This document shows, piece by piece, positions 11,068-56,400 of a stretch of DNA of 64,000 nt (positions within the stretch are counted from its first letter, which is position 1; the number at the start of each line of letters is the position of its first letter). The notes under the pieces were generated by a model, which did no database searches, was not told the origin of the DNA, and saw only the letters and a program-made list of their open reading frames with translations. Source of the stretch: Rhizomicrobium sp. (GTDB lineage: Bacteria; Pseudomonadota; Alphaproteobacteria; Micropepsales; Micropepsaceae); NCBI GenBank assembly GCA_035543495.1, contig DATKJT010000045.1, positions 11,445 through 75,444 of the forward strand. The letters run 5' to 3'. The translations under genes and the position numbers were made by a program.

Positions 11068-11204
11068 ACTTACCTCCCCCAACGCGGGGAGGTCGACGGC
11101 GCGCGCAAGCGCGACGGCGGGTGGGGCTCTCCAGCGAGCCTCGCTGAACCCCACCCGGTCGCGTGCCGTTGCACGCGCCCGACCTCCCCAAAGGGGAGGT
11201 AAGT
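11068..11204. repeat. Palindromic repeat element (REP/MITE-like), copy A, full
   Basis: Terminal inverted repeats ACTTACCTCCCC...GGGGAGGTAAGT; fills the whole gap between two convergent stop codons; near reverse complement of 34770-34904. Confidence 0.9.
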
Positions 11205-15434: not shown

Positions 15435-16163
15435 ATGCGTATTATCGTAAATCGTGAAACGCTTTTGCTGGATGCACTCGGCGCCGCCTTCTGGCCCGCC
15501 GAAGCCACGCTGATCGTTTCCGATCTCCATTTCGAAAAAGGTTCCTCCTTCGCGCGCAAGGGCCAGATGCTGCCGCCCTACGATACGATGACGACGCTCG
15601 CCCACATCGCCGATCTGTTCGCGCGCCACAAACCAAAACGCGTCATCGCGCTGGGCGACTCCTTCCACGACGGCGAAGGCCCCGACCGCCTGCCCGATGC
15701 CGCGCGCGACAGGCTGTCGAATTTCATGTCCCGCGCCGAATGGATCTGGATCGAAGGCAACCACGACCCGGATGTTCCCGCCTGGCTCGGCGGCAAAGCC
15801 ACCTGCGAAATCGCCATCGGCGGCCTCGTCTTCCGTCATGAACCGCGTGCGGATACGGCGGGCGAAATCGCGGGCCATCTTCATCCGTGCGCCACCGTCA
15901 CACGCCGCGGCCATTCCATGCGGCGCCGCTGTTTCGTGAGCGACGGCGTGCGCCTCGTCATGCCCGCTTTCGGTGCCTATACCGGCGGCCTCAACGTGCG
16001 CGATCCCGCGTTTCAATCGCTGTTTGGAACGTCCTATCTCGCTTATGCGCTCGGCGGCCGCCGCGTCTATGCGGTGGCGGGCGATCCTCAGCTGATGCGC
16101 CGGAACAGCGTGGACGACAGCCACCCCAGCATGGTCGCCATCAATACGGTGGAAACGCCGTAA
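15435..16163 (+). CDS. pdeM: Ligase-associated metallophosphoesterase/endonuclease PdeM
   Basis: SDLHFEK, LGDSFHD, GNHD, GHLHP, MPAFGAYTGGLN; directly after Lhr. Confidence 0.9.
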   Translation: MRIIVNRETLLLDALGAAFWPAEATLIVSDLHFEKGSSFARKGQMLPPYDTMTTLAHIADLFARHKPKRVIALGDSFHDGEGPDRLPDAARDRLSNFMSRAEWIWIEGNHDPDVPAWLGGKATCEIAIGGLVFRHEPRADTAGEIAGHLHPCATVTRRGHSMRRRCFVSDGVRLVMPAFGAYTGGLNVRDPAFQSLFGTSYLAYALGGRRVYAVAGDPQLMRRNSVDDSHPSMVAINTVETP

Positions 16164-16915
16164 GCCAGCGGCGATTGGTGCGCGAAATTGAACAGCCGCC
16201 GCTCCAGCCCCGTTTGATCCACATAAAGCGGCGTCGATTGCGCGCTGATCACATTGCCGTCGCGGAACAGATAGACCTGCACGTTATATTGCCCACGCGG
16301 CACATCCGCCGGAACCGGCACGCGTGCGCGAAACAGCGTAGGGCTTAAAAACTCCACACCGCCCGCATTCTCGTTATAAAGCCCGTCGATCAATTTGTGC
16401 CGCACCAGCGCCTCGCGATACGGCTCGGCAATTTCCGGTGTGCGCGCGCTCGTCGAACGCGGCGAAACCTCATCCAACCCCAACTCGTATCGCTTCAGCG
16501 TTTCGACCGGCGCAATCGCCGAAAGCGGCCGCGTGCTCGCGACATAGTAGTAAGACGGGATGCTGTGCATCTCGACGCCGTGGTTGTTCAGCCAGATGCC
16601 CGCCACCCGCTCCTTCTTGCGCACAATCATGTCGCCATCGGGCCCGCGCACCGCGACCACAATGTCCATCGGCCCCGCCGCCGTCATCACATTCATGTTC
16701 TCGATGGCCCCGAACGCCACGATGTCGGTGCCGGTGTAATTCGACGTGATCTGAATGATGTCCTGCGAAAGCCCCGCCACAAGATCGTCGGCTTGTGCCG
16801 AAGCAGTACAAAGCGATAGTGAAAGCGCCAGCAGCAGTGCTCCTTTCTTACCTCCCCCTCGCGGGGAGGTCGGGCGCTTGCATCGGCAAGCGACCGGGTG
16901 GGGGGCGCTTCTCAT
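16088..16915 (-). CDS. TIGR02186 family membrane protein
   Basis: Signal peptide then DLVAGLSQ..I.ITSNYTG, DIVVAVRGP, RKKERVAGIWLN, LFRA, C-terminal TM; ATGA overlap with the TauE gene, its usual partner. Confidence 0.85.
   Translation of the reverse strand: MRSAPHPVACRCKRPTSPRGGGKKGALLLALSLSLCTASAQADDLVAGLSQDIIQITSNYTGTDIVAFGAIENMNVMTAAGPMDIVVAVRGPDGDMIVRKKERVAGIWLNNHGVEMHSIPSYYYVASTRPLSAIAPVETLKRYELGLDEVSPRSTSARTPEIAEPYREALVRHKLIDGLYNENAGGVEFLSPTLFRARVPVPADVPRGQYNVQVYLFRDGNVISAQSTPLYVDQTGLERRLFNFAHQSPLAYGVSTVLMATMLGWLSSTLFRRIS
16847..16906. repeat. Palindromic repeat element, copy B, half element inside a CDS
   Basis: CTTACCTCCCCCTCGCGGGGAGGTCGGGCGCTTGCATCGGCAAGCGACCGGGTGGGGGGC matches the left arm of 34770-34904; 60 bp, in frame. 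Confidence 0.9.
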
Positions 16916-17829
16916 GACGCATCCACCACGCTGAACGGATCGCCCGGCGAAACGAGCAACCCGTAAAGCAATCGCGCGCCCACCGCCAACACCAGCACCG
17001 CCAGCCAGAACCGCAATTGCTCGCCGCGCATCCGCGATGCCGCACGCAATCCGAACTGCGCGCCGATCACGCCGCCGGAAATCAGGATGCCCGCCAGAAC
17101 GATGTCGACAGTGAAATCGCTCACCGAATGCAGAATGGTGCTCGCCGCCGTCACGAACACGATCTGCAACAGCGATGTCCCCATCACGATGTTCGCCGGC
17201 ACCCGCACGAGATAGATCAGCGCCGGTACCAGAAGAAATCCCCCGCCGATACCCATGATGGCCGACAGCACGCCGATGCTGAACCCGATCAGCACCGGCG
17301 GTATCACGCTGATGTAAAGCCGCGAGTCCCGGAACCGCACTTTGAATGGCAATCCATGAATCCAGTTGTGATGCTGTGCGCGTGCGGATGGCGTGGGTTC
17401 CCCTCGCCGCTGCGCTGCCAGCGCTTCCAGCGACTCCCGCAGCATCAACGTCCCGATGGTGCCGAGCAGTATCACGTAGGATGCCGAAACGATCAGCTCC
17501 ATCTGTCCCGCTGCGCGCAACACGCCGAACAGCCACACGCCGGCGCCCGTGCCCACAATGCCGCTCGCCGTCATGATCGCGCCGAGTTTCAGGTCCACCG
17601 CCCGGTTGCGCCATTGGGTGATCGCCCCCGACATCGATGATGCCGTCACGTGGCTTGCGGTGGTGGCCACCGCCACGCCCGATGGAATGCCATAGAACAT
17701 CAGAAGCGGCGTCAGCAGAAATCCGCCGCCCACGCCAAACATGCCCGAAAGAAATCCCACCGCGCCGCCGATGGCGAACAGAAGCAGCCAGTGAACCGAC
17801 ATTTCGGCGATCGGCAGATAGATTTCCAT
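16912..17829 (-). CDS. Sulfite exporter TauE/SafE (TSUP) family protein
   Basis: MEIYLPIAE start, GMFGVGGGFLLTP and GIGGGFLLVP repeats, GTSL. Confidence 0.9.
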   Translation of the reverse strand: MEIYLPIAEMSVHWLLLFAIGGAVGFLSGMFGVGGGFLLTPLLMFYGIPSGVAVATTASHVTASSMSGAITQWRNRAVDLKLGAIMTASGIVGTGAGVWLFGVLRAAGQMELIVSASYVILLGTIGTLMLRESLEALAAQRRGEPTPSARAQHHNWIHGLPFKVRFRDSRLYISVIPPVLIGFSIGVLSAIMGIGGGFLLVPALIYLVRVPANIVMGTSLLQIVFVTAASTILHSVSDFTVDIVLAGILISGGVIGAQFGLRAASRMRGEQLRFWLAVLVLAVGARLLYGLLVSPGDPFSVVDAS

Positions 17830-17939
17830 GAGCCCGGAAAACGAACCAGATTGCTTGGTTCGCAACCATGTCATGGCCGCGCGCGACGGGCCACCCGGTA
17901 TCGCTGAAAATCGCTATGGGCTGTGGGATAGCGGCTTGA

Positions 17940-20900
17940 TTATCCGCGACCCGGCGTCTCCGGCGGCACGTTGGCCGCGCGATTGATCGGTTCGGGCCGG
18001 AACGTATCGGCGGCCTTCTGCGCCGCATCGTGATCTGCGGGCGAAAGCTGCGTGGCCAATGCCGCCACGCGTGCCTTCGATTCATTGTCGCCCTGCGAAG
18101 CGGCGATCGCATACCATTTGTACGCTTCCGTCAGGCTTTGCGGCACGCCGAGCCCACGCTCATAAAGCACTGCAAGATTGAACTGTGAATCTGCGAGTCC
18201 CAGCGTCGCCGCCCGCCCGAACCAGCGCGCAGCCTCCGCATAATTCTTTGCAGAACCCGTACCTTCGGCATATGCCACGGCCAGATTGTGCATCGCCTTG
18301 CGATTGCCCTGACGGGCTGCCGCTTCATACCAATGCAGGGCCTTGGCCGCATCGGTCGCCACGCCGTGACCGCGTTCGTAGAGTGTGCCCAGACGGAACT
18401 GTGCAATCGGCTCGCCCTGATCCGCCGCCCGCTGCAGCCATTTCGCCGCCACGGCTTCGTCAACGGTCACGCCGTCGCCATCGAGATACTTCAAGCCGAG
18501 CAGCAACTGGGCTTTCGAATTGCCCCCATTGGCGAGCACAGTAAGCCGGTCGCCGGTACCGGCAGACGCTTCGGGCTTCTCTGTCTTCGGTGCTGTGGTT
18601 GGCGTCTTCGGCGGAAGCACCATCGCGTTCGGCTTCGGCTCGCTCTGCGTCGGAGCAACCGAAGGCCTCACCGGAAGTGGTTTCGTTGTCGCCGGAACGG
18701 TTTGCGCCGCCGGAGCCGTCTGCAAAATCTTGTGGCTGCCAAGCCGCTGGCTCAGCATCACGCCAAGTCCGATCGCCAGAATGGCGACGAGCGCAATCCC
18801 GCCAATCAACACCACGCGGGAGCGGGGCTGTTCTTCGCGTGCTTCCGGTTCTTCGCGGCGCGCGCCCCAGGTGAAACCGCCCAATGTCGTCGGCACGGGC
18901 TCGTCCGGAATGGCCGTCACCACGGCCGAACGCCGTGCGGCACTTAGGAATTCCTCGTCTTCCCGCGCAGCCGCAAATCCATCCGCTGCAAGCGGGCGTT
19001 CCTCGCGGAAAATATCGTCGTGATCCGTTTCGGGCGGCGTGAACGCATCCTTGTGGCGTTGCCCGAACGCGCGGTTGATCGCGCTGTCCTTGAACGCCGC
19101 CGCAATCGGTTCATCGAACGGCGGCATATCGAATTGCGGCAACTCGCGGCCGGCCTCGGCTTCGTCTTCCGCCGACAATTCAACAGGCGCTTCTTCCGGT
19201 TCTTCCGGCGCTTCGTCCGCCGGTGCGGCCATCTCGACAGGCGCTTCGGGTTCTTCCAGCGGAGCAGGCGAGGGCGCCACCCCTTCGATCACTTCCAGAC
19301 GGCCGGAGGTATTTTCCACCGTGCGGCGCAACCCGGAAATCGATTCCTGCGTCGTGCGATGAACGTCGTCGATCTTGCCCGAAAGCGCGCGTAACTGTTC
19401 TTCGATGCTCGTGCTCGTCGCCAACGAATGGCGCTCGGCCGCTTCCAGCCGCTCCATCAATTCCTGGATGCTGCGCTCCACGCCGTATACACGGCGGTCC
19501 AGCCCGCCATCCTGGCGGCTTTCGACGCGCGCAAATCCTTCTTCCAGCCGCGCCAGCGCCGAAGCCGATTGAACTTCCTGCCCTGCCACGCGCGCGGAAA
19601 GCTGTTCGATGCTGTCTTCCAGCCGATGCAATTGCTGGTTCAGTTCTCCGTCTCCGGACGCATCTTTTTCCTTGGCCAGATGGCTTTCCAGCGCGCTGAT
19701 GCGGGCATGAACTTCGTTTAGCGCATCTTTCTGTGCCGAATGCGTCTCATCCATCGCGCGCTGTAGTTCTTCGACGGCCGTGCGTTCCGCCGAACCGTCG
19801 GAGATCGCCGCGAAGCGCCCCTCTAGTTCGCCGATGCGGGACTGCACCGTGTCGAGCACCTCTTTGTGCGACGAACGCGTCTCATCCATCGCCCGCTGCA
19901 ATTCTTCCACCGCCGCGCGCTCGGCCGACCCGTCGGAAATTGCCGCAAAATGGCTTTCCAATTCGCCGATCCGCGCCTGCACGGTGTCGAGCACGTCTCT
20001 CTGCGACGAGCGCGTTTCTTCGATCGCCTGCTGCAGCTTTTCGAGCGCAATCTTGCGTTGCGCTTCGCCATCGTCGTCGGAGAACCGCTTCTCCAATTCG
20101 GCGATGCGCGCATGAACTTCGTTGCGCGTGTCGTCTTGCGCGCCGCGAATTTGTTCAATCGCTTGCTGCAATTCGTGGCGCCGCGTGCCGTAACGCGTGT
20201 CCAGCGACTTCAAATTCTGCATGAACTCGTCGCGGATCGCCGCGTGGCGTTCTTCCACGCCCGCAAGCAACACGTCGGAGAAATCGGCATCCGGGCCGCT
20301 GCGTTCTTCCAGCCGCCGTATCGCGCGGTCGGTCGCTTCGCTCTTCACGCGCAGCGTCGTCTCCACCGCCTGCATGCGGTCGTCGAGATAGCTCATGCGC
20401 TGCGTCATCAAGGTGGCGGTCCCGGCCGCTTCCTTGTGCGCTTCGCTCATCTTGGTGACGACGGCTTCCATGGCGCTTGCCAGCACCGAAATCTGCGATG
20501 CCGACTGGTTGGCCGTCTGCGCCACCTGGTCAGCCATGCGGGCAAGCCCGTTCTGCAATCCGTGCACCACATCCCGCGTCGTATCGGTGCTCGCGCGCTG
20601 TTCGATGCGGTCCACCCGCTCGCCCAGCGAAATCACATGCGCGCCCAGCGTGTCGAACGCCTGCATCTGTTCGTGCGAGGCGTGGCTGATTTCCTGCGCC
20701 GCCTGGCTCATCATCTGGCTGTTGTCGGTCTGCGAGCGCTCCGCCGAATCCAGCCGGCGCGCCAGCGAGCGCAGATGATCTTCGATCTTTTTGTAGGCGT
20801 TGCTCGTCTCGGATTCCGTGCGGCTCACGTGGGCCAGCATGTCTTGCGATTCTTTGGGGGTCGCTGCCATGACGGGCTCCTCAGCAGGGCGCGTGGCCGG

Positions 20901-21065
20901 ACGGGCAGGCCGTCCCGGTTCGCCCAGGGCGTCCGCTGCAGTTCTTGCGATCTGACGTGTGAGCCACTCGCCGACGGACAGCCCCTCGCGACGGGCCGCA
21001 GCCCGGGCTGCTTCGCGCGCTTCTGGAGGGATTCCGGCTACATTCCACGGAAGGTCCGCCCGCAT
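17940..21065 (-). CDS. podJ: Polar organelle development protein PodJ-like
   Basis: N-terminal PWNVAGIPPEAREAARAAARREGLSVGEWL, long coiled coil, acidic Pro-rich linker, one TM helix, three Sel1 repeats; start ATG 21065 or GTG 21074. Confidence 0.8.
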   Translation of the reverse strand: MRADLPWNVAGIPPEAREAARAAARREGLSVGEWLTRQIARTAADALGEPGRPARPATRPAEEPVMAATPKESQDMLAHVSRTESETSNAYKKIEDHLRSLARRLDSAERSQTDNSQMMSQAAQEISHASHEQMQAFDTLGAHVISLGERVDRIEQRASTDTTRDVVHGLQNGLARMADQVAQTANQSASQISVLASAMEAVVTKMSEAHKEAAGTATLMTQRMSYLDDRMQAVETTLRVKSEATDRAIRRLEERSGPDADFSDVLLAGVEERHAAIRDEFMQNLKSLDTRYGTRRHELQQAIEQIRGAQDDTRNEVHARIAELEKRFSDDDGEAQRKIALEKLQQAIEETRSSQRDVLDTVQARIGELESHFAAISDGSAERAAVEELQRAMDETRSSHKEVLDTVQSRIGELEGRFAAISDGSAERTAVEELQRAMDETHSAQKDALNEVHARISALESHLAKEKDASGDGELNQQLHRLEDSIEQLSARVAGQEVQSASALARLEEGFARVESRQDGGLDRRVYGVERSIQELMERLEAAERHSLATSTSIEEQLRALSGKIDDVHRTTQESISGLRRTVENTSGRLEVIEGVAPSPAPLEEPEAPVEMAAPADEAPEEPEEAPVELSAEDEAEAGRELPQFDMPPFDEPIAAAFKDSAINRAFGQRHKDAFTPPETDHDDIFREERPLAADGFAAAREDEEFLSAARRSAVVTAIPDEPVPTTLGGFTWGARREEPEAREEQPRSRVVLIGGIALVAILAIGLGVMLSQRLGSHKILQTAPAAQTVPATTKPLPVRPSVAPTQSEPKPNAMVLPPKTPTTAPKTEKPEASAGTGDRLTVLANGGNSKAQLLLGLKYLDGDGVTVDEAVAAKWLQRAADQGEPIAQFRLGTLYERGHGVATDAAKALHWYEAAARQGNRKAMHNLAVAYAEGTGSAKNYAEAARWFGRAATLGLADSQFNLAVLYERGLGVPQSLTEAYKWYAIAASQGDNESKARVAALATQLSPADHDAAQKAADTFRPEPINRAANVPPETPGRG
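19690..20170 (-). repeat. Intragenic 135-bp (45-aa) tandem repeat, about 3.5 copies, in PodJ coiled coil
   Basis: CGTCTCATCCATCGC recurs at 19744 and 19879 (period 135); protein unit AERAAVEELQRAMDETRSSHKEVLDTVQSRIGELEGRFAAISDGS; ends approximate. Confidence 0.85.
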
Positions 21066-21212
21066 ACGACTCACAGCGCCCGAATAGCCCGCAACAATGC
21101 AAGGTATCGACGCCGAGATGTTGTGTAAAGAATCTACACAACGTCGATGGGCTGTGGGTGCTTCCCGCGGCCGTCGACCGCTTAATGATTAACAATCGAC
21201 GTTAATATCGGG

Positions 21213-34769: not shown

Positions 34770-34904
34770 CTTACCTCCCCCTCGCGGGGAGGTCGGGCGC
34801 GTGCATCGGCACGCGACCGGGTGGGGTTCAGCGAGCCTCGCTTTATCAGCCTCCCACCCGCCGCTGCTGCGCAGCGTCGACCTCCCCGCGTGGGGGGAGG
34901 TAAG
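34770..34904. repeat. Palindromic repeat element, copy C, full
   Basis: CTTACCTCCCC...GGGGAGGTAAG termini; inverted relative to 11068-11204. Confidence 0.9.
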
Positions 34905-34905
34905 T

Positions 34906-35970
34906 GTGACGTCATCCCCGCTCGACAGTGTTCGCGATCTTCTCGAACAAGGCCGCGCCTATGAAGCGGTGCAAATCCTCCGTACACTGATCGAAGGCAA
35001 CCGCGGCGGTCTCCTGGCGAGGCTGTTGCTCGCGACTGCGCATCTCGCAAGCGGCGACATAGCGGCCGCCCTAGAAACCGCGCGCGACACGGCCTCGCTT
35101 TATCCCGGCGTTGCCCAAGCCGCGCTTTCGCTTGGTGAAGCCTTGCTCGCCGCCGAAGCCCTTCCATCGGCCATCGCCGAATTCCAGCGCGCGCTGCGCA
35201 TCGACCCCGCACTCAGTGAAGCACGCCTCAAACTCGCCGAAGCCTGGCTCGCAGCGGGCGAGGCCGGCAAAGCCATCGAAGCTCTCGAAGCCGTCGAAGA
35301 AAGCCCGACACGAGCCGCCCTCATCGAACGGGCCGGTGCCATGCACGAACAGCAGCGTTCCGATGCAGGCTATGTGCGCCATCTCTTCGATCAGTTCTCA
35401 ACGGACTACGACCAGCGCATGCGCGGCCAGCTTGCCTATGCCGCTCCCGAAATCCTGCGCAGCCTCGCCGAGATAATCGGCCTGCAATTCTCCCGGCACG
35501 ACATCCTCGATCTCGGCTGCGGCACCGGTCTTGGCGGTGTGGCCTTTAAAGACATCGCCAGTCGTCTTGATGGCATCGACCTCAGCCCCGCCATGATCGC
35601 GAAGGCCAAAGAACGAGGCATCTACGACACGCTGATAGTCGGCGACATCGAAACGCTCGCCCAAACCGGCCATCGTTATGATCTGCTGATCGCCGCCGAC
35701 ACGCTCGTTTATCTCGGTGACCTCGCCCCGGTCTTCAAAGCCGCCGCCCACGTGCTCAAACCGGGCGGAACTTTTCTCTTCACCGTCGAGAAAGCCGAAG
35801 ATGGTTTCGAGCTTGGCCCCAAGCGCCGCTGGCGTCACGCCGAAACCTATCTGCGCGATCTTGCTCAACAATCCGGTTTCGAGATCGCCGGTCTCCTCGC
35901 CGCCAGCCCCCGCACCGAAGCCGGAACGCCGGTGGAAGGTTTCGCCGTCGCGTTACAGAAAGTTTCTTAG
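34906..35970 (+). CDS. TPR-containing class I SAM methyltransferase
   Basis: N-terminal TPR helices, then YVRHLFDQF...YD, LDLGCGTG, GIDLSPAM, AADTLVYLGDL; GTG start inferred. Confidence 0.85.
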   Translation: MTSSPLDSVRDLLEQGRAYEAVQILRTLIEGNRGGLLARLLLATAHLASGDIAAALETARDTASLYPGVAQAALSLGEALLAAEALPSAIAEFQRALRIDPALSEARLKLAEAWLAAGEAGKAIEALEAVEESPTRAALIERAGAMHEQQRSDAGYVRHLFDQFSTDYDQRMRGQLAYAAPEILRSLAEIIGLQFSRHDILDLGCGTGLGGVAFKDIASRLDGIDLSPAMIAKAKERGIYDTLIVGDIETLAQTGHRYDLLIAADTLVYLGDLAPVFKAAAHVLKPGGTFLFTVEKAEDGFELGPKRRWRHAETYLRDLAQQSGFEIAGLLAASPRTEAGTPVEGFAVALQKVS

Positions 35971-52585: not shown

Positions 52586-52897
52586 ATGACAAGCAATACC
52601 GCCGTGTCCCCCGAACTCAACCGGGTGGCCGCCCTGCTGGAAGACGAGCTGTACGAATGCCATGCCGCCGTCATGGCCGCCTTCCGCTTTGCCGAAACGC
52701 ATCCCGATCCCAAGGCGCAGCTTGAAGCGATGAAAGCCGGCAGCCGCATGATGCAGGCAAGCGCCAACGCGGCATGCGCGCTCAGGCGCCTGCGCAGTCC
52801 CGGCACCCATCACACCGTCACCGTGCAGTCCGCGCCCGCAGCGGGGGAGGGGGGAGATACCACCCCCGAAAAATCGAAAACGAATAACCACGAATGA
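52586..52897 (+). CDS. Hypothetical 103-aa helical protein
   Basis: AT-rich promoter-like region and GGAG upstream; ATGA coupling to the next ORF. Confidence 0.55.
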   Translation: MTSNTAVSPELNRVAALLEDELYECHAAVMAAFRFAETHPDPKAQLEAMKAGSRMMQASANAACALRRLRSPGTHHTVTVQSAPAAGEGGDTTPEKSKTNNHE

Positions 52898-53100
52898 CCG
52901 CCCGCAACCGCGGCGCCCAACCCGGCAACCGCAACGCCCTAAAAACCGGCCGTCACACGAAAGAGATGCGCGCCTTGCGCCAGCAAGCGCGCTTGAGAAT
53001 CTATGCGCTGAAAGCCGCGATAGCACAGGCCAGAATCGTACCTCCCCTTCGCGGGGAGGTCGACAATTCAGAGCGAAGCGAAGAATTGGCGGATGGGGAC
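52894..53100 (+). CDS. Small basic protein with GAQPGNRNALKTG motif; 3' end invaded by repeat (frame stays open to 53715)
   Basis: MTARNRGAQPGNRNALKTGRHTKEMR...; the frame enters repeat F at about codon 49; end coordinate is nominal. Confidence 0.5.
53039..53099. repeat. Palindromic repeat element, copy F, half element
   Basis: TACCTCCCCTTCGCGGGGAGGTCGACAATTCAGAGCGAAGCGAAGAATTGGCGGATGGGG matches the arm type of copies D/E. Confidence 0.85.
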
Positions 53101-53121
53101 GTCAGTGCCCGCGCAGAGAAA

Positions 53122-53445
53122 TCAGATCGAAGCCTCGATCCATTCCTTGATCTTGGATTTCGGCAGCGCGCCCACTTTCGTGGCCGCGACCTGTCCCTGG
53201 TTGAAGATCATCAGGGTGGGGATTCCGCGCACGCCGTATTTCGTCGGCACATGCGGGTTCTCGTCGATGTTGATCTTGGCGACGGTGACTTTCTCGCCCA
53301 GTTCGGTGGCAAGTTCTTCCAGCGCCGGCGCAATCATGCGGCAGGGTCCGCACCATTCCGCCCAGAAATCCACAACCACCGGCTTCTTCGCCGAAAGCAC
53401 GTCATTTTGAAACGAGCTGTCCGAAACTTTGAGGGGGGCCGACAT
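53122..53445 (-). CDS. trxA: Thioredoxin
   Basis: [19 protein letters not shown]. Confidence 0.97.
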
Positions 53446-53488
53446 ATTGTGTTCCTTGGGTTGGATGGATGCGTTCTGTTGAGGGAAT

Positions 53489-56400
53489 CTAGGAACGCGA
53501 CCCCCGGGGGTCAAGGTCCGCGCCCGCCCGAAGCTGTGCGTCGAGCACCCCGTCCGAAAGCCGCATCAGTCTGGGCCCCGCGGTCCACAACAGCCCGGAA
53601 ACGATGCGTTTTCCGGGGAACACCTTTTTCAGCGCCGCCCGGTAAAGCGCCATCTGGGACAGGTATCCGGCAGACACATCCGCCTCCGTCTCCGGCACCG
53701 CCCGGTCCGTCTTGAAATCGAGCACGAGCACCTCGTCGCCCGAAACCGCCAGCCGGTCCACCCGCCCGTTCACCTTGATACCGCCGAATTCCGGAAGCTC
53801 CGCCGCCAGCGCCACTTCCGCCCGGCTGCCTTTTGCAAAAACAGGAGCAAACGTCTCATCGCCGAGCACGCCCAGAATTTCCGCCACACAACTTTGCGCG
53901 TCGGATTCGGAAACGCCGCGCGCGAGCAAGAATTTGCGCGCGATCTCGCCCCGTTTTTCCGTCGCGATCTCCGGTAACCGCGCCAGCACCGCGTGAATCA
54001 AAACCCCGCGCTTGAACGTCTTTCCTTCCTTCGAAAGCGGCGACAACGCGACCGCTTTGGGCTCGACCAGCGATGGACGCACCACGCGCGGCCGTTCCGC
54101 TTCTTCCTTCGCAGGCGTGCGCGCCCATTTGGGCACTTCGGTTTTCACAATGTCGGCAACGGCGGCCGTCTTCGGCAAACCGTCTTCGGTATCGCCATAA
54201 ATGCGAATGGTCTCGCCACTGCGCTCCACCGGCACGCCCAATTCCTCTGCCGCGCGCTGCATCAGCGCGTACCAGGATTCGTCGTGAACGCCTTTGCTGT
54301 TTTCAAACCCGCAGATGTAAAGCCGCTCCTTCGCCCGCGTCAGCGCCACATAGAGCAGCCGCCGGTGTTCGTTCAGCGCTTCGGCCTTGGCTGCCTGCCG
54401 GGCCGCTTTCACCGATTGCGGTGCCATATCGTTCGGCACCGAGAACAGCACACGGTCATCCGCATAAAGCAGATGCCGCTTCTGCATATTGGAAGCAGCG
54501 CGCGTCGTATCCGGCAGGATCACGATGTCGGCTTCCAAACCCTTGGCGCCATGCACCGTCATCACGCGAACCTCATCGCGCCCGCGTTCCATATCGCGCT
54601 TGATCTCCGCCCCGCCGCGCTCGATCCAGTGCAGGAAGCCCTCCAGCGACGGCGGGTTCTGCGTCTCATAGGCGAGCGACAGCGAAAGAAATTCCTCGAT
54701 GGCGTCCGCCGCTTCCGCGCCCAACCGCAAGAGCAGCTTCAACCGCATCCCGCGCACGGTCAGCACATGCGCGAAAAACTCGTAAGGCGGCACGAAATCC
54801 GCCCGCGCCAGACATTCGGAAAGAAATTCGTGCGCGCCGTCAAACGTGGGGTCTTCGCTCGCCTGCAAGGCCCGCCACAACGTCCCCTCGCGCTCGTAGC
54901 TCAGTGCGAACAACTGTTCTTCGCTGATGCGCACCAGCGGCGACCGCAAGATGGTGGCAAGCGTCAGATCGTCTTCCGGCAACAACACAAACCGCGCCAG
55001 CGCCATCAGATCCTGCACCGCAATCTGCTCGGTGATGCGGATGCGATCGGCCCCCGCAACCGGAACGCCGACGGCCTTCAATTGCCGGATGATCTCGCTG
55101 CCGAACGGCTCGCGCCGCGGCAGCAAAATCATGATGTCCCCCGGCCGGATCGGATGATCGCGGTTGGGAAGCGCCACACCTTTCGCGATCCATTGCCTGA
55201 TCGTGCGCGCAATCTTCTCCGCCAACCGCACAACGGGGCTTGCCTCCGACGGCGTATCGACGGGCCGCCACGGATCGGGGTCTTCCTTGTCGTTCGGCTT
55301 GATCGACGGCCAGAACTCGACGCGCCCGCGCGCCTGTTTACGCAAGGGCTCGTGTTCGATCTCCAGATTGAGCGAGGTCAACCCCGCGCGCGCCTCGCCA
55401 TCGCCGAACACGCGATCGACAAACGTAAGCACTTCCGGCACCGAACGGCGCGAGGTTTTCAGCATCTCGTAGTTGAACGCGAGTCCGGCACTTTTGATGT
55501 GCGCTTCGAAATGTTGCCGGTTCACATCGAACTGCGCGGGGTCGGCGCCCTGGAAGCTGAAGATGGATTGCTTCTCGTCGCCCACCGCAAACACGGTGCG
55601 CACCGTCTTGGTCTCGCGCCCCGCGCCGGAGAAGAATTCCTCGGTCAGCTTCTTCAGGATCGCCCATTGCTCGGGGCTCGTATCCTGCGCCTCGTCGATC
55701 AACACGTGATCGAGCCCGCCGTCGAGCTTGTAAAGCACCCAGGCCGCTGTTTCGCCGCGCTCCAGCAGCGAAAGCGTTTCGGTGATGAGGTCGTCGTAAT
55801 CGAGTGCTCCGCGCGCCCGCTTCTCCGCCGCATAAAGGCCGCGCACCGCATCGGCAATCGTCAGCGCCGCATCGCAAAGCGCCGCCGCATGCGCCGCGCG
55901 CCTGCGTTCTTCGGTATCGCGCGCGCGCTGCGCCAGGTCTTCCAGATAAATCAGAAGATCCGGCCGCGCCTCACGTGGTTTTTTGGTCACGAGTTCTTTG
56001 TACGGCTCACCATCCTGCCTTTGAAACGATCCCAGCAGGTCGGCGAATGTGCCCACCTCCAATCCCGTTTCAACGAACCGCGCGATGCCGCGCACGCGTT
56101 TCTGATCGGTGGATGTTCCCGCGCTCATCCACGCAACGATATCCCTGATGCGCTGAACGTCCGCCTTCAGCGAAGAGCAGAACTCCGCAACCACATCATG
56201 CGCGCTCTGCGTTTCGCTTGCCCCGTGAAACCGCCGCACCGCGCGCGTCAGCGATCCGTCGCGCGGATGACATCCTGCCAGCGCCCGCGAAAGTTTGCGC
56301 CGCTCGTTGCCCAGTGCCGCATCCAGAATATCCTGCAGCTTCTGCTCGTTGGTTTCGGTGACAAGCAAACCAACCGCCGCCCCAAGCGCCATGTCGCCGG

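Follow-up and report, generated by a model that had tools for sequence, protein, structure and literature searches.

In-frame insertion of a palindromic repeat unit behind the start codon of a TIGR02186-family gene in Rhizomicrobium

Why does the reading frame of a conserved gene in Rhizomicrobium open with a copy of a dispersed repeat, and is this repeat translated? In the window (the whole stretch of 64,000 nucleotides analysed here), a tauE/safE-family membrane protein gene (16912–17874, minus strand, 320 amino acids in the ORF list, PF01925 with 159.5 bits) is the upstream gene of an operon and is followed on the same strand by a TIGR02186/Alph_Pro_TM gene (16088–16915), whose product including the insert has 275 amino acids. 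This product matches PF09608 with 267.7 bits over residues 45–273 and the TIGR02186 profile with 240.9 bits; residues 28–273 are aligned to profile positions 9–260, which implies about 19–20 surplus residues at the N-terminus. The gene is single-copy, a second copy being absent from the genome (G000). As the original prediction had read from the sequence, the ATG of the TIGR02186 gene (16915–16913) overlaps the TGA of tauE (16914–16912), and comparison with orthologous loci identifies this ATGA (16912–16915, minus strand) as the ancestral, conserved start. The frame running from the ATG is MRSAPHPVACRCKRPTSPRGGGKKGALLLALSLSLCTASAQA|DDLVAG or, split into its parts, MRS-APHPVACRCKRPTSPRGGGK-KGALLLALSLSLCTASAQA-DDLVAG. 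Further upstream of tauE lies a gene for a 1044-amino acid Sel1-repeat protein (ORF 17940–21074), which contains four tandem repeats of 135 nucleotides (45 amino acids) at 19687–20226 (minus strand).

The repeat is a solo unit of 57 nucleotides (16847–16903, minus strand, repeat families D3/D4 and I4) that reads CCCCACCC...GGGGGAGGTAAG in the sense of the gene and begins 8 nucleotides past the tauE stop codon. Its 19 codons, codons 5–23 of the TIGR02186 gene, encode PHPVACRCKRPTSPRGGGK. The unit is 96% identical to positions 34770–34826 and 93% complementary to positions 11149–11189. Folding predicts two hairpins, an inner one with a stem of 7 bp (CGCTTGC-ATCG-GCAAGCG, 16875–16892) and an outer one with 8 bp (ACCTCCCC-loop-GGGGAGGT, 16850–16870), the latter being recovered by the pattern hits as well. 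The stem of the inner hairpin varies among subfamilies (for instance CGCGTGC/GCACGCG and GAAAAATGC/GCATTTTTC) and is self-complementary in every case. The 3´ arm of the outer hairpin, in gene sense GGGGGAGGTAAG, resembles a Shine-Dalgarno sequence. For the mRNA around the unit a folding energy of -73 kcal/mol was predicted (z = -2.9), with the first hairpin starting at +19. Five of the six reading frames of the unit are free of stop codons.

That the repeat is an addition to an older gene became clear from the orthologues. In the 19 orthologous loci of the same genus for which the N-terminal region was read, the gene starts with a short leader of the MKRALLA... type and contains no repeat sequence; 18 of these 19 loci keep the stop/start overlap with tauE, mostly as ATGA and in some cases as GTGA, TGATG or ATGxxTGA. 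The 13 closest database homologues (79–92% identity) likewise have repeat-free leaders and are mostly 252 amino acids long. Taken over the 19 loci and the 13 homologues, the leaders comprise 19–24 amino acids, mostly 19–20 (MKRxLxA...), and the orthologues have 249–252 amino acids versus 275 with the insert. The closest empty sites, L033–L037 from the same 90%-identity protein cluster, also retain the overlap and show a gap of 65+4 alignment columns directly after the ATGA. The site is thus empty in all orthologues examined, which bears out the prediction of a repeat copy lying in frame just past the TIGR02186 start and confirms that a repeat unit has been inserted into the coding sequence of this gene.

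The size of the insert had been given as exactly 20 codons, a figure that has to be corrected: the canonical unit has 57 nucleotides, that is 19 codons, and the net surplus over the empty sites is 66–69 nucleotides (22–23 codons). For the remaining nine or so nucleotides there are two candidates, AGAAGCGCC 5´ of the unit and AAAGGAGC 3´ of it. The 9 nucleotides AGAAGCGCC (16904–16912, minus strand, codons 2–4, R-S-A) separate start codon and unit in the alignment to the empty sites, and their origin is ambiguous, as they resemble the spacer of full elements and also the ancestral MKRA codons; a spacer-like tail of the element and ancestral codons would both fit. An assignment of these nucleotides is precluded by the divergence of the leader; the DNA identity to the nearest empty site is no higher than about 85–91%.

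The insert is present in two diverged lineages. The 275-amino acid product is encoded on two metagenome contigs from ENA, L031 and L032. Contig L031 agrees with the window at every position over 3.8 kb (100% identity) and perhaps comes from the same source. Contig L032 (ENA assembly ERZ27256576) carries the identical insert with identical junctions and shows 106 mismatches in 3692 nucleotides (96.7% identity). An artefact of assembly or a chimera at a repeat, which the original prediction had named as a possible refutation, is a conceivable explanation for an insert of this kind, as contigs of related MAGs often break off at repeats of this family. However, the same junctions and the same product recur in two other assemblies, including an independent one that is diverged to the extent just given, and the unit is located 16.8 kb inside a contig of 140 kb, which makes this explanation practically negligible.

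The same comparison reveals how the gene has fared with its insert. The TIGR02186 genes of the window and of L032 differ by 13 synonymous and no non-synonymous changes, and the two tauE genes by 12 and 0; in the TIGR02186 gene, codons 1–86, which include the insert and the signal peptide, show no difference at all. Since both lineages contain the insert, the 13:0 changes arose after the insertion and the protein has been under purifying selection since then. For the mature part, a dN/dS of 0.078 was obtained against an empty-site orthologue. Judged by these substitution patterns, the TIGR02186 gene is still functional after the insertion and under strong purifying selection.

Where does the repeat come from? 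It belongs to a family with 178 units in genome G000 (3.47 Mb, 73 contigs, 60.8% GC), with the general form CTYACCTCCCC-loop-GGGGAGGTCG-(variable hairpin)-CGGGTGGGG. The genus assignment of G000 agrees with the database names of homologous proteins, which are given as Rhizomicrobium. Sixty-five head-to-head pairs make up full elements of 124–181 nucleotides, each consisting of two inverted units and therefore bounded by terminal inverted repeats (such as I1/I2 and I5–I7 in the window); 48 units are solo. The lengths of the 65 full elements are spread evenly over the three classes modulo 3 (19/25/21), and pairs of outward-facing repeat ends 0.4–4 kb apart also occur in the genome. A classical MITE would combine terminal inverted repeats with a target-site duplication, but a duplication of at least 3 nucleotides was found at the flanks of none of the 65 full elements, and direct repeats of 2 nucleotides were observed at three of them versus about 4.7 expected by chance; we therefore rejected this assignment. 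Mobilisation by a RAYT was rejected as well, since a search for the Y1/RAYT transposase (PF01797) gave no match in G000 (completeness 100%, 73 contigs), while the control genomes were matched. A pattern search found the family in 23 of the 41 Rhizomicrobium genomes sampled, with 181 hits in G000 versus 0–66 in the 40 sampled congeners. The high copy number in G000 suggests a recent expansion, the comparison being affected by the fact that MAG assemblies under-count repeats. A literature search brought up nothing on repeats of Rhizomicrobium.

The position of the copy behind tauE corresponds to a habit of the family. Of the 178 outer ends, 105 are directed towards a convergent gene and meet it at its 3´ end. 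Neighbouring genes were analysed for 38 solo units, 18 of which have a gene running into their inner (CCCCACCC) end, and in 10 of these 18 the stop codon of that gene ends 1–10 nucleotides before the unit; only one solo unit has the stop codon inside. With its gap of 8 nucleotides to the tauE stop codon, the copy studied here falls within this range and is thus located in the usual position of a solo unit. Since the start codon of the next gene overlaps this stop, an insertion behind the stop was automatically intragenic at this junction. At 52894–53715 (plus strand), a small ORF (MTARNRGAQPGNRNALKTG...) has no stop codon before a half repeat (53036–53099); the ORF continues to a length of 273 codons, antisense to trxA (53122–53514, minus strand), and the half repeat may have displaced its stop codon.

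The other end of the repeat could be of importance for the genes that follow it. The outer end has the sequence GGAGGT(A/G)AG, which is a Shine-Dalgarno sequence plus, in one frame, TAA or TGA. For about 19 genes of G000 the start codon lies 0–12 nucleotides after such an end, and in the window, at 34896–34908, the GTG (34906–34908) of a TPR/methyltransferase-like ORF is located 5 nucleotides past the GGAGG of a repeat. The outer end of the repeat may supply ribosome-binding sites.

The TIGR02186 gene is not the only gene entered by the family. All units were scanned with a home-made model of codon usage derived from G000 itself, followed by Pfam and orthologue comparison, and five cases were checked by homology. 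Besides the TIGR02186 copy, four further in-frame copies were found in G000, in the genes for TrmB, an SGNH hydrolase, FliP and LptM. In trmB (PF02390), a full element of about 41–43 amino acids (G000:C32:64803–64933) lies between the conserved N-terminal ...ADPQGYF and VEDVWLEVGFGAGEHL of the methyltransferase core, as seen by comparison with orthologues; the closest species, G021, and G006 have no element there. Since this element is internal, it has to be read through. The TrmB protein of G023 has a stretch of 16–18 amino acids (SPRGAVGSRSNP) at the position of the element, which looks like a decayed unit.

The other three elements are located in leaders, where they are in frame and separate a conserved upstream ATG from the h-region. 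The leader of the SGNH/GDSL hydrolase (G000:C45:103662–103792, about 92218–92348 in the numbering of the window and thus outside it; also on L038) consists of MTRRRFKLVRR, a full element of 44 amino acids between n- and h-region, and AGLIFALCVAAPANA|APIKIL. The orthologues of G005, G020 and G006, whose sites are empty, share both its ATG and the MxRxxFK motif. In G021 an element of equal length is found at the same site and in frame with its core inverted (115 of 130 positions agree with the reverse complement versus 104 of 130 in direct orientation), and from the conserved ATG the element is open in both G000 and G021. The elements in the FliP and LptM leaders are located, in this order, at G000:C37:39220–39352 and G000:C32:5717–5842. 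In FliP, MRSALF is followed by the element and then by WKRALIMILASLL...; G021 is empty at this position, and in both species the upstream gene ends with a stop codon that overlaps the fliP ATG. The LptM-like lipoprotein (PF13627, 25.3 bits, just below the cut-off of 27.3) is encoded behind argH, the stop codon of which overlaps the lptM ATG in G000 and in all four relatives with the order argH-lptM (G021, G006, G020 and G005). Here the element begins 9 nucleotides past the argH stop and is open in frame in G000 as well as in G021; G006, G020, G005 and G023 have an empty site. In G021 an ATG located 7 nucleotides past the GGAGG of the repeat is a possible new start of lptM, the corresponding codon in G000 being ATA.

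Four of the five intragenic copies are thus found in cleavable N-terminal leaders, and all five keep the frame despite the even spread of element lengths modulo 3 across the genome, as would be expected if they are translated. Genes with an apparent read-through at the C-terminus (22, then 9 in the codon-usage scan) were discarded as scan artefacts, their translations being of the R/H/G-rich antisense type.

For the TIGR02186 gene, translation of the repeat depends on the start codon that is used. The h-region ALLLALSLSL with its flanking residues and the c-region CTASAQA (16790–16840, minus strand) can be recognised by homology to the orthologues, and cleavage is predicted after A42 (AQA|DD), homologous to the A-x-A|[DE][DE]L[VT][SA]G junction of the orthologues. 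A basic n-region, a hydrophobic h-region and the A-x-A motif can all be recognised by inspection and by alignment to the orthologous leaders. The alignment also agrees with the original prediction that the insert adds basic residues to the n-region and leaves the h-region intact; the c-region is intact as well. The added peptide has a net charge of about +7, two cysteines and four prolines. On general grounds, the resulting signal peptide of 42 amino acids with its n-region of 25 is expected to be competent for export. The absence of ATG, GTG and TTG codons from the insert to the mature domain had been noted correctly: the first in-frame codon of this kind after the start is the GTG at 16780–16778 (codon 46), which lies past the position where cleavage is predicted. 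The insertion has changed neither the ancestral ATG nor the sequence context upstream of it nor the ATGA shared with tauE, and the first hairpin at +19 lies outside the footprint of an initiating ribosome, so that ribosomes terminating on tauE should still be able to restart at the ATG. Thus, as far as can be judged from sequence, the ATG at 16915 is likely to be used and the repeat to be translated as an extension of the n-region.

Existing annotations are in conflict on this point. The models of JGI and ENA start at the ATG at 16915 (275 amino acids), whereas the NCBI model starts at the GTG (16778–16780, minus strand, by exact look-up) and yields a product of 230 amino acids without signal peptide. 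A start at this GTG would mean that the signal peptide is lost and the gene is impaired or its product relocated. It is the first canonical in-frame start past the repeat, which is why it comes into consideration at all besides having been chosen by the NCBI pipeline. The codon is, however, located three codons past the conserved cleavage site and inside the conserved DDLVAGLSQD block; the orthologues share a valine codon at this position and do not use it as start, and no Shine-Dalgarno sequence is visible ahead of it. In addition, the 13:0 constraint is hard to square with a loss of export, and all orthologues read have a leader. We regard a start at the GTG as very improbable.

Initiation between the repeat and the h-region deserves more attention and is still unlikely. 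The only conceivable non-canonical site downstream of the ATG, judged from its sequence, is the Shine-Dalgarno-like AAAGGAGCA followed by CTG CTG CTG (16829–16846, minus strand, codons 24–29). The repeat end GGAGGTAAGAAAGGAG would drive initiation at one of the in-frame CTG codons (16837–16829) and give a leader (M)LLALSLSLCTASAQA; the repeat would then be an intercistronic or 5´ element and the reading from the ATG into the repeat merely a by-product. A strong Shine-Dalgarno-like GGAGG is indeed located at the end of the repeat with AAGGAG behind it, the latter 2, 5 and 8 nucleotides ahead of the three CTG codons. The roughly 19 genes with canonical starts behind the same repeat end and the possible new ATG of lptM in G021 fit with such a function; if the latter is used, relocation of a start does occur in this family. 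But CTG is a very poor start codon in bacteria, and the resulting leader would be without a basic n-region. With the ancestral ATG and its coupling context untouched and the frame open, initiation at the ATG would be hard to avoid, and the preservation of the frame from the ancestral start in five of five intragenic copies is not required if translation begins at CTG.

With initiation at the ancestral ATG as the preferred reading, the following course of events can be proposed. A solo unit of a REP/BIME-like palindromic family would have inserted directly behind the stop codon of tauE and, as the ATG of the next gene overlaps this stop, would have fallen into codons 2–24 of the TIGR02186 gene. 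The net 66 nucleotides are a multiple of three and the phase in which they are read is free of stop codons, so that the ORF would have survived. Through translational coupling to tauE, ribosomes would continue to initiate at the ancestral ATG and would translate the repeat as a basic, Pro/Cys-rich extension of 22 residues in the n-region of a Sec signal peptide. With the h-region and the AQA|DD site unchanged, the protein would be exported and cleaved to the same mature form as before, and the insertion would be a tolerated, near-neutral passenger. Taken as a whole, insertion behind a stop codon, read-through from the ATG and tolerance as a passenger in the n-region probably provide the best explanation for this locus.

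The original prediction went further and described the repeat as domesticated, a term we would not retain. The extra peptide lies in the part that signal peptidase would remove. Five of the six frames of the unit are open and an insert of 66 nucleotides does not shift the frame, so that the ORF could survive without any special selection; the position of the insert is explained by the post-stop habit of the family, and selection for a new peptide does not have to be invoked either. The original prediction also supposed that the hairpin may tune translational coupling.

In-frame insertion of palindromic repeats has been observed previously. Rickettsia palindromic elements (RPEs) insert in frame into conserved genes (Ogata et al. 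2000, as summarised in PMC2229807 and PMC10969869), and in-frame insertions of ERIC/IRU, Correia and Yersinia YPAL repeats have been described in free-living bacteria (Delihas 2007/2008, PMC2229807; review PMC10969869). The idea of an RPE-like insertion in a free-living alphaproteobacterium is strengthened by the four further in-frame copies in G000, but its novelty is limited by these earlier reports from free-living bacteria (PMC2229807). The TIGR02186 case adds an example to a kind of event that was already known, with a lineage and a repeat family that are both new to it. Like RPEs, the Rhizomicrobium units are small palindromic repeats with open frames that lie in frame in conserved alphaproteobacterial genes, affect several genes per genome (here five, including trmB) and leave the host proteins functional. 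The differences are that Rhizomicrobium is a free-living genus of soil or peat, that the family is presumably distinct in sequence from RPE-1 to RPE-10 of Rickettsia, and that its unit is a two-hairpin module of 57 nucleotides often arranged in head-to-head pairs. Furthermore, most of its copies are intergenic and located behind stop codons, and four of the five intragenic ones are in cleavable leaders and not in mature domains.

Other repeat families show partial similarity. YPAL/RU-2 and ERIC/IRU are likewise non-autonomous repeats of free-living bacteria that are fused in frame to ORFs; they are flanked by target-site duplications and consist of one long stem-loop, whereas the Rhizomicrobium family has no such duplication. 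In Yersinia YPO1552, a signal peptide is partly formed by a repeat (PMC2229807), which there contributes the hydrophobic part to a putative new protein, whereas the insert described here does no more than extend the n-region in a leader that is old and conserved. The REP, BIME and REPIN sequences of gamma-proteobacteria are similar in layout: short imperfect palindromes in high copy number, single or in inverted pairs, just downstream of stop codons and without target-site duplication. The arrangement in G000 is of this REP type, with 65 doublets and 48 singlets that are mostly intergenic and often close to the 3´ ends of genes. The Rhizomicrobium family differs from REP and REPIN sequences in having neither a RAYT (Y1 transposase) nor a GTAG or CGTC head, and in its longer unit with two hairpins and an outer end of GGAGG plus TAA/TGA.

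In Rfam no family matched the unit at its gathering score. The sole hit was whalefall-1 (RF01762), which aligned over its full length to window positions 16848–16905 (plus strand) and 11147–11202 (minus strand) with 22.8 bits and so did not reach the gathering score of 37. Whalefall-1 has been described as a non-coding RNA restricted to metagenomes of whale falls (Weinberg et al. 2010, PMC2864571). Over the 56 nucleotides of the model the similarity comprises two hairpins, the first of 7 bp, with a short linker between them, and a tail resembling GGGUGAGG; in contrast to the Rhizomicrobium unit, whalefall-1 was not presented as a repeat dispersed over genomes. It is conceivable that this "sRNA", too, is a unit of a dispersed repeat of the Rhizomicrobium type.

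What does this insertion mean for Rhizomicrobium and its repeats? It reveals neither a new mechanism nor a new protein function. It also draws attention to an annotation problem, as the NCBI model of the TIGR02186 gene drops the signal peptide, and to a repeat family with an end that may serve as ribosome-binding site. A wider reading, which we put forward tentatively and consider rather doubtful, would see the family as a post-stop module of two hairpins followed by an end of GGAGG plus TAA/TGA, which, without RAYT and target-site duplication, repeatedly rewires gene junctions in Rhizomicrobium by entering overlapping next genes. There it would either be translated into additional signal-peptide or linker residues, as in the genes for TIGR02186, the SGNH hydrolase, FliP, LptM and TrmB, or donate a new Shine-Dalgarno sequence and start, as in lptM of G021 and the approximately 19 genes with a start behind a repeat end. 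Some copies would have been kept across speciation, such as those in the SGNH hydrolase and LptM genes shared with G021, and leaders would be the main gateway for such repeats into the proteomes of free-living bacteria. For the locus itself, the empty site, the filled site and the two diverged filled lineages together provide a clean and datable case in which a selfish palindromic repeat has entered a conserved gene, in all probability harmlessly, and they show that in-frame insertions of the RPE type also occur outside the reduced genomes of intracellular bacteria.
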